Positions 16,589 to 17,330 of a stretch of 64,000 nucleotides of DNA are shown here, one piece after another. Each line of letters opens with the position of its first letter. Positions within the stretch are counted from its first letter, which is position 1. The notes under the pieces were generated by a model that had not been told where the DNA came from, did not search any database, and saw nothing but the letters and a program-made list of their open reading frames with translations. Origin of the DNA: a virus; IMG/VR virus record IMGVR_UViG_3300031521_000017. The stretch is one strand, 5' to 3'. The translations under genes were made by a program, and so were the position numbers.

Positions 16589-16617
16589 TTGACATTCACA
16601 AAAATTTGTGATATAAT
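16589..16617 (+). promoter_or_regulatory. sigma-A-type promoter (TTGACA-17-TGTGATATAAT)
   Basis: TTGACA at 16589-16594 and TATAAT at 16612-16617 with an upstream TG. Upstream of tRNA-Val and tRNA-Asp. Confidence 0.7.
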
Positions 16618-16651
16618 AAGCGTATAAGGAAATGAGAAATACATTTTATCT

Positions 16652-16727
16652 GCTCGCTTAACTCAATGGCTAGAGTTTCGGTGTTACATACCGAGGGTTG
16701 GGAGTTCGAGTCTCTCAGTGAGCACCA
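16652..16727 (+). tRNA. tRNA-Val (anticodon TAC)
   Basis: Acceptor GCTCGCT/AGTGAGC; D-arm ACTC-AATGGCTA-GAGT; anticodon stem-loop TCGGT-GTTACAT-ACCGA; T-arm GGGAG-TTCGAGT-CTCTC; discriminator A, CCA. Confidence 0.8.
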
Positions 16728-16730
16728 TAT

Positions 16731-16805
16731 GGTCTATTAGTGTACTGGCGCGCACGACACCCTGTCAAGGTGTAAGAACGAATTCAATTTTCGTATAGAC
16801 CGCCA
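16731..16805 (+). tRNA. tRNA-Asp (anticodon GTC)
   Basis: Acceptor GGTCTAT/ATAGACC (perfect); anticodon stem-loop ACACC-CTGTCAA-GGTGT; T-arm ACGAA-TTCAATT-TTCGT; discriminator G, CCA. Confidence 0.7.
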
Positions 16806-16809
16806 TAAT

Positions 16810-17330
16810 AATAATTGGGAAGGTAGCAGACACACACTGAGTAATTGGGGTGTATATGGTAATAGGGGCTACTACGGAATCACAAGTGTTGTGGGGTGAT
16901 TTCAAAATCCTGCGGGAATGCAGGTTGGTGGAGGCGTGGTACTAGTACCACCTCAATTTTGGGCTTAAGATGTAGATAGAAGGATGCGGGATGCAATCAC
17001 TATCGGTCCACCGCTGTGGGAACATATGACATGATAAGAAGGGGGCGCAGTCCGAATTGTTCGGAACTCCGGTTCTTATCCTGTGGCTGGCAGAAAATAT
17101 CCAGTCTGAGACTCAGCCTTTTGTCATCTGTTAGGAGCATGAGTCGAAAAAATGATAACGGGTGAAACAAGTGACTTGGATGTTAGATGTGACCGATTGA
17201 AACATCGACAAAATTAGGTCTGATAGGCGACTAAATATTTGGCCGGAGTGGAGCTTACATATAAGCAGGCCTGGTAGCTGCAACCACCAAAGCCGCAAGG
17301 CAGCGCCTATTAAATTTTGGGACAAAGTTG
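16810..17330 (+). ncRNA. ~0.5-kb ORF-free structured region downstream of the TROVE gene and tRNA-Val/Asp (candidate Y-RNA/vault-RNA-like or other ncRNA)
   Basis: No credible ORF. Perfect palindromic hairpins are present (GTGGTACTAGTACCAC; TCCGAATTGTTCGGA). Co-transcribed from the 16589 promoter. Confidence 0.35.

Follow-up and report, generated by a model that had tools for sequence, protein, structure and literature searches.

A phage RNA island with a Ro60 gene and a promoter-tRNA unit

The window (the whole 64,000-nucleotide stretch analysed here) belongs to a large phage genome. Its genes include those for topoisomerase II subunits, RecJ, a DnaB-like helicase, an anaerobic ribonucleotide reductase and a large DNA polymerase. 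DNA identical to it was found in an 85-kb ENA contig and in Logan and JGI contigs, the source samples being ERZ27249606 and SRR8555691. Large phages are increasingly seen to carry islands of structured RNAs without known function (ROOL, GOLLD, raiA), and the first 19 kb of the window form such an RNA island, in which ARAGORN detected 28 tRNA genes and Rfam a ROOL RNA (RF03087, 11430-12061, 321 bits) and a raiA RNA (12746-12985, 116 bits). The island also contains a tmRNA (20-391), a Ro60 gene and seven Y-like RNAs; one phage encodes tmRNA, ROOL and raiA in a block that also holds Ro60. The presence of raiA inside a phage genome seems noteworthy; one relative, L016, also has both ROOL (801-1402) and raiA (1796-2016). 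At 7396-7480, ARAGORN reported a tRNA with a four-base anticodon (caaa), to which it assigned no identity. The closest non-phage homologs of the LemA-family phage protein encoded at 18907-19455 belong to Enterocloster/Lachnospiraceae (about 53% identity); together with the anaerobic ribonucleotide reductase, these homologs hint at anaerobic Clostridia as the host. Searches with the LemA-family protein and with a GIY-YIG protein of the window revealed no closer relatives of this phage; the relatives used below were obtained via TROVE homologs of 55-74% identity.

The TROVE/Ro60-like gene (15056-16525, + strand) was recognized by Pfam TROVE (6.8e-23), the vWA_Ro60 match in the same ORF being slightly under the Pfam cutoff (26.9 versus 27.7 bits), and Ro-like homologs of its product are present in many phages. 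Judging from the alignment, the real start of this gene is probably the GTG at 15074 rather than the listed TTG at 15056: the GTG aligns with the ATG of all relatives and is preceded, 8 nt before, by a conserved AAGGAG. The stop codon is followed by a terminator-like hairpin (16540-16567, + strand) with a weak T-run on the + strand, in the place of which relatives have hairpins of differing sequence. Next comes a sigma-70 promoter with an extended -10 (16589-16617, + strand; TTGACA-17-TATAAT with an upstream TG), which matches the consensus at 12 of 12 positions, in agreement with the original prediction. This is the sole perfect promoter site within 14600-18700, and its exact 20-mer is unique in the window; a scan of JGI metagenomes with the 20-mer returned one relevant contig. 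The 29 nt of the promoter are unchanged in L016 and differ by one base in L015, whereas the flanks differ.

Two tRNA genes follow on the + strand, in the predicted order and with ARAGORN and Rfam in agreement: tRNA-Val (TAC) at 16652-16727 (57.2 bits in Rfam) and tRNA-Asp (GTC), with an encoded CCA, at 16731-16805 (53.6 bits). At the base right after this CCA begins a G-rich, ORF-free stretch of 541 nt on the + strand (16806-17346), a candidate non-coding RNA called region C below. It had been described as lying directly downstream of TROVE. It is indeed 3' of the TROVE ORF and on the same strand, but the post-TROVE hairpin and the promoter of its own tRNA unit lie between them. The span first given, 16810-17330, is ORF-free as claimed, but the element extends further, to about 17346. 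Each + frame of 16806-17393 contains 11-14 stops, and the interval is empty in the public gene annotation of the identical contig, so that a coding reading of region C was ruled out. Region C is followed on the + strand by a free-standing GIY-YIG/NUMOD1 homing endonuclease gene recognized by Pfam (17394-18020) and by a hairpin (hairpin D, 18031-18104, z -5.0).

Y-like RNAs upstream of the TROVE gene

Region C was originally proposed to be the Ro60-bound Y-RNA analogue of this phage, an unusually long RNA encoded 3' of rsr. In Salmonella, YrlA and YrlB are encoded 3' of rsr in the rsr-yrlBA-rtcBA operon, which counts in favour of this proposal. The position of region C does so as well: from the end of the TROVE gene (16525) to the beginning of region C (16806), on the same (+) strand, the distance is less than 300 nt, inside the limit of about 4 kb taken for Y RNAs. 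Region C thus resembles known Y RNAs (YrlA and YrlB, or Yrl1 and Yrl2 of phage phiLo) in being non-coding, beside a Ro60/TROVE gene and on the same strand.

The 295 nt upstream of TROVE are conserved in relatives, unlike the stretch downstream. Repeated Y-like units were identified in these 295 nt, defined by a 5' NAG-U-GG-URAG, an internal (G)NUACUUC and a 3' AUUCCCU-N, and all relatives have one to four of them upstream of TROVE; across the seven units of the window (see below), the internal motif is NUACUUC and the 3' motif AUUC(C/U)CU. Eleven units from relatives share a terminal helix with an invariant bulged U and show compensatory changes at 8 of the 10 pairs. The unit motif, which includes exact GGCGAAG variants, is consistent with GNCGAAN0-1G, the Ro-binding motif published for bacteria (PMC4201824).

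A covariance model of this clade's Y-like bulged helix (CM R2), trained on relatives only, found seven copies in the window, all on the + strand and all in the tRNA island (E 7.6e-10 to 2.6e-4): 6036-~6240, 6252-6388, 6397-6469, 13074-13146, 13738-13830, 14771-14927 and 14933-15021. A weak unit is present at 13242-13310 (+ strand). The Y-like units of the window are about 70-210 nt long; the seven are recognized by no Rfam family, and so many Y RNAs for a single Ro60 gene are unusual.

Two of the seven units lie just upstream of TROVE. The first (14771-14927, + strand) is YrlA-like, with the 5' motif GUGGUGAG and the 3' strand AUUCCCUG, and comprises a T-arm (14829-14845), an acceptor-like hairpin (14846-14866) and a D-like arm (14867-14887). 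In this unit as in 6252-6388, T-arm, acceptor-like hairpin and D-arm follow one another in the permuted order described for YrlA (PMC4201824). The second, a short YrlB-like unit directly upstream of TROVE (14933-15021, + strand), scored 38.3 bits with CM R2 (E 6.8e-8) and folds into a terminal helix with a bulged U. The arrangement of these two units upstream of TROVE matches that of Thermus phage phiLo, where Yrl1 and Yrl2 are upstream of Ro60 (PMC12135203), and that of M. smegmatis, where the Y RNAs are also upstream (PMC4201824).

None of these properties was found in region C. First, CM R2 gave no hit in 16806-17340 even at E<=10, and a regular-expression search for the Ro-binding motif found none in region C; the bulged-helix search that the original prediction had called for is thus negative in this region and positive elsewhere in the window. 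Second, the tRNA-like module that had been predicted was not recovered, ARAGORN and Rfam both detecting no tRNA or tRNA-like element in 16806-17393, and the Rfam covariance search, also called for, gave no Y-RNA-type match in region C at E<=10. Third, conservation of region C does not go along with that of TROVE: it is missing from relatives in which TROVE and the Y-like units upstream have been retained throughout, and in L010 the slot downstream of TROVE is occupied instead by an ORF and a ROOL RNA. Unlike Y RNAs, region C has neither a terminal bulged helix with a GNCGAA-like motif nor a T-arm/D-arm tRNA-like domain, and it is several times longer than the Y-like units of the window.

In conclusion, region C is not a Y RNA, and the proposal that it is an unusually long Ro60-bound analogue has become highly improbable. 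The Ro60 partner RNAs predicted from sequence are the GUGGURAG...ACUUC...AUUCCCU units, upstream of the gene and scattered, not region C.

Region C and the B elements of relatives

The composition of region C is RNA-like (G>A>U>C, GC about 45%) against a genome of 37-44% GC. Its GC content is 0.454 (G 0.282, C 0.172), equal to that of raiA (0.450) and of the B elements described below (0.450 and 0.454), the genome value being 0.375. All palindromes quoted in the original prediction are present in region C, among them GTGGTACTAGTACCAC at 16936-16951, with GAG..CTC around it, and TCCGAATTGTTCGGA at 17051-17065. A terminal hairpin (17316-17346, + strand; UUUGGGA...UCCCAAA) is predicted with a pair probability of 0.93, and long-range pairs are predicted between 16860-16866 and 17306-17312 and between 16925-16931 and 17284-17290.

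The claim that the region is structured did not find support in single-sequence statistics. The fold of region C is not more stable than that of shuffled sequences (MFE z -0.55 for the + strand, -0.3 and -1.1 for its two halves), compared with -4.2 for ROOL, -2.9 for tmRNA and -1.5 and -2.6 for coding sequence; this measure separates ROOL, the positive control, yet the coding controls overlap. The excess of perfect inverted repeats with arms >=6 is marginal (13 versus 7.9 +/- 2.9 in shuffles, p about 0.05), and this test has little power because ROOL scores no better.

Searches of families and databases gave no homolog of region C. Rfam 15, whose families include Y RNA, ROOL, GOLLD, raiA, OLE, RNase P, introns and ribozymes, gave no match to region C at gathering score; searches of 611 nt and of 4 kb with lax filters gave none at E<=10 either, the one hit listed for the 611 nt being an artefact of 9.6 bits that falls on the hairpin of the endonuclease leader. 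BLASTN in 'distant' mode against 50,697 GenBank phages gave zero matches to region C or to elements B and A (see below), and exact-pattern scans of IMG/VR with a 21-mer of region C, conserved blocks of B and A and a degenerate module pattern gave zero hits, the IMG/VR and GenBank phage sets being without this phage clade. A GTDB scan with the B block likewise gave zero hits. With nhmmer, region C matched nothing in nine relatives (TROVE homologs of 55-74% identity), 18 GIY-YIG-relative loci, 44 metagenome loci and two large contigs. Overall, no homolog was found in INPHARED, IMG/VR, JGI metagenomes or the relatives. Tile-by-tile nhmmer aligned ROOL, raiA, TROVE, the promoter and tRNA-Val across relatives, and 16806-17400 with nothing in them. 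All recovered copies of region C are 100% identical, and region C itself therefore gives no covariation. Region C is not complementary beyond chance to rRNA, nor to any other part of the window.

Two relatives, L009 and L016, nevertheless have an element without ORFs, about 440-590 nt long (element B), that begins where the tRNA-Asp CCA ends and belongs to the promoter-tRNA-Val unit downstream of TROVE. In L009 it measures 444 nt (8003-8446, Logan SRR32608975) and sits exactly between the tRNA-Asp CCA and tRNA-Arg; in L016 it measures about 590 nt after tRNA-Asp (about 6696-7285, Logan SRR10083250). Element B is unnamed and not in Rfam, and independent gene callers found no gene in either B element or in region C. 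The two B elements are homologous (nhmmer E 5.6e-10, the homology covering the 3' 400 nt in L016). In the two sequences 70 predicted pairs are kept, 23 of them being changed on both sides; sliding controls collapse the signal, and the structure was derived from that very alignment.

Two neighbouring hairpins of B were made into a covariance model (CM R1), built from B without the window, which was run on both strands of the 64 kb with filters off. Its best match is at 17081-17159 on the + strand, inside region C, with 17.8 bits and an E-value of 0.0067, E-values of such short-calibrated models being rough; the second-best match in the window has an E-value of 0.85. In the relatives (93 kb), all hits at E<=1 belonged to the family, and unrelated DNA (654 kb) scored 14.1 bits at most. 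The B sequence profile, used with nhmmer, also had its top window match in this place (17112-17147).

The module thus located in region C consists of hairpin 1 (17085-17106, + strand), identified by CM R1, covariation and MFE, and hairpin 2 (17110-17145, + strand), with the conserved loop GCCUUUUGU....UGUUAGG. The stems are completely different in the three sequences: GCCAAG/CUUGGC, GCCAGA/UCUGGC and, in region C, GGCUGG/CCAGUC for hairpin 1; GGUGGAG/CUCGCC, GCCGGGG/CCCAGGC and, in region C, GACUCA/UGAGUC for hairpin 2. The hairpin 2 loop is kept in all three (GCCUUYYGU-N4-UGUURGG). In the three-way alignment, which was fitted to the structure of the model, pairing holds in 98% of cells, and 11 of the 21 pairs have both bases changed; the signal is lost when the partners are slid.

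Beyond the module, the nhmmer B profile found no other collinear match in region C, and the B-conserved 3' block AAGAAUUAGACCGUGUGUAG and other B patches are absent from it. About 80 of the 541 nt can be related to B, and, since no homology is detectable outside the module, any relationship of region C to B is a very distant one. The two share the slot right after the tRNA-Asp CCA, the lack of ORFs, a similar size, an equal composition and the two-hairpin module, and region C shares with the B element of L016 a hairpin D downstream. They differ in that the 5'/3' closing helix and the conserved 3' block of B are not recognizable in region C, and in the distance of the module from the 5' end, which is 280 nt in region C versus 60 nt in L009 and 215 nt in L016.

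The endonuclease cassette and the possible nature of region C

The GIY-YIG gene lies 48 nt downstream of region C and has no promoter-like site of its own. Its leader contains an 11-bp hairpin (17356-17398, + strand; z -4.9 for the fold of 17310-17400) that pairs the AUG of the gene and holds the ribosome-binding site AGGAGG in its loop. This hairpin is part of the endonuclease cassette, not of region C, and it looks like a device for translational damping of a read-through transcript. No close homolog of the GIY-YIG gene was found elsewhere; weak homologs occupy other sites in L008 and L010. Free-standing GIY-YIG endonucleases of the Seg type, such as T4 SegB, are known from phage tRNA regions, and the window gene resembles them in its location among tRNA genes, in its differing sites in related genomes and in its hairpin-held start. 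This likeness concerns the gene at 17394-18020, not region C, and accounts for the separation of region C from hairpin D. In L016 the homolog of hairpin D (7307-7378, z -4.8), which has another stem sequence, comes directly after B; in the window hairpin D comes directly after the GIY-YIG gene, which itself follows region C. This order shows that the endonuclease cassette was inserted beside C, between it and D, and not within C.

The loop of hairpin D (18072-18088) is a perfect antisense of 17 nt of 23S rRNA (nt 1925-1941), extended to 18 nt in L016. The matched segment, nt 1925-1941/2 (CUAAGGUAGCGAAAUUCC), is universally conserved and next to helix 69; a GTDB scan hit 23S genes (Chlamydia, Patescibacteria and others), and the match was confirmed with E. 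coli rrlH. The minus strand of the loop reads as a 23S mimic. The recognition site of I-CeuI overlaps this segment of the 23S rDNA, which is located in a hot-spot of group I intron insertion.

The adjoining GIY-YIG/NUMOD1 gene would be compatible with region C being part of a self-splicing intron or ribozyme linked to the endonuclease. In the tRNA island of L010, an Rfam group I intron hit (3064-3252, 69 bits) lies about 400 nt downstream of a GIY-YIG gene distantly related to that of the window, which also favours this reading. However, no match of region C to Intron_gpI, group II or ribozyme families was obtained at E<=10 with lax filters; the tRNA-Asp and tRNA-Arg that flank region C are intact, so that there is no interrupted host gene; and B elements occur without any endonuclease. 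We consider an intron origin extremely unlikely.

The prediction of an RNA gene in this place holds to the extent that region C is non-coding and, from its tRNA unit, RNA-like composition and covarying module, probably an RNA gene, but not a Ro-bound Y-RNA analogue. Anatomy, synteny, composition and the shared covarying module argue for a functional RNA that belongs, with the B elements, to an unclassified, fast-evolving and lineage-specific family, a family that would count three sequences; we give this reading an even chance. Such an RNA would be transcribed, processed and stable. It would be co-transcribed with tRNA-Val and tRNA-Asp from the consensus promoter at 16589, and its 5' end would be set by 3' processing of tRNA-Asp. 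In L009, which has tRNAs on both sides of B, the element would be released as a discrete RNA by tRNA-processing enzymes. Region C would fold into a multi-helix RNA that includes the two-hairpin module (17085-17145) and ends in the 17316-17346 hairpin. The GIY-YIG cassette would have been inserted later, between region C and the conserved hairpin D, so that read-through of region C would also deliver the endonuclease mRNA, with its start codon sequestered in a hairpin. If region C is linked to Ro60 at all, it is possibly a client of Ro60/Y-RNA quality control, as one of many structured phage RNAs.

The same observations have to be weighed against a mostly neutral spacer, that is, a decaying B-type remnant in a recombination-prone tRNA island that serves as the 5' leader of the endonuclease. 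The MFE of region C, not better than that of shuffles, agrees with decay, as do the presence of one short module as its only recognizable part and its complete difference among relatives in which the TROVE gene, the promoter and tRNA-Val can be aligned. A promoterless endonuclease 48 nt downstream, with the hairpin-held start codon expected for control of a read-through transcript, agrees with a leader. However, decay should have moved region C towards 37% GC, whereas its composition has remained RNA-like, as in B and raiA and 8 GC points above the genome. The pairing of the module is kept despite fully different stem sequences; the endonuclease lies outside the terminal hairpin of region C and beside hairpin D, region C not being disrupted; and where endonuclease copies follow a tRNA in L008 and L010, their leaders measure no more than about 80 nt. 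We regard the spacer as unlikely, while giving it some weight.

ROOL and GOLLD are large ornate RNAs often found beside tRNAs in phages (PMC5737381, PMC12286853), and a ROOL is located 5 kb upstream of region C in the tRNA island of the window. Region C resembles these RNAs as a non-coding element of about 0.5 kb in a phage tRNA array with a purine-rich, RNA-like composition. It differs from ROOL in having no covariance-model match and no comparable thermodynamic signal; in addition, alignments of ROOL between relatives reach E-values of 1e-30 to 1e-50, and region C does not align at all. If the functional-RNA reading is correct, region C and B add a much faster-evolving RNA family in a fixed slot beside the Ro60 gene, and provide a tractable case for the role of tRNA-flanked RNAs and for their policing by phage Ro60/Y-RNA systems.

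A more speculative and rather improbable extension is that region C and B form a new class of rapidly diverging structured RNAs of 0.45-0.6 kb, cut from phage tRNA operons by tRNA-processing enzymes and acting with the Ro60/multi-Y-RNA system and the 23S-antisense hairpin D. Such RNAs might, for example, be a client or scaffold of Ro60, or belong to a device with which the phage acts on the ribosomal RNA of its host during takeover.

Finally, an ORF-free element of about 150 nt (element A) was observed directly after tRNA-Val in L008 (7700-7870), L015 (3789-3943) and L016 (6278-6425). Element A is absent from the window, and neither Rfam nor the GenBank phages gave a match to it. Its copies in these phages, whose TROVE proteins are each only 63-74% identical to that of the window, share about 90% identity, and it is a candidate for a second unclassified RNA of the promoter-tRNA-Val operon.
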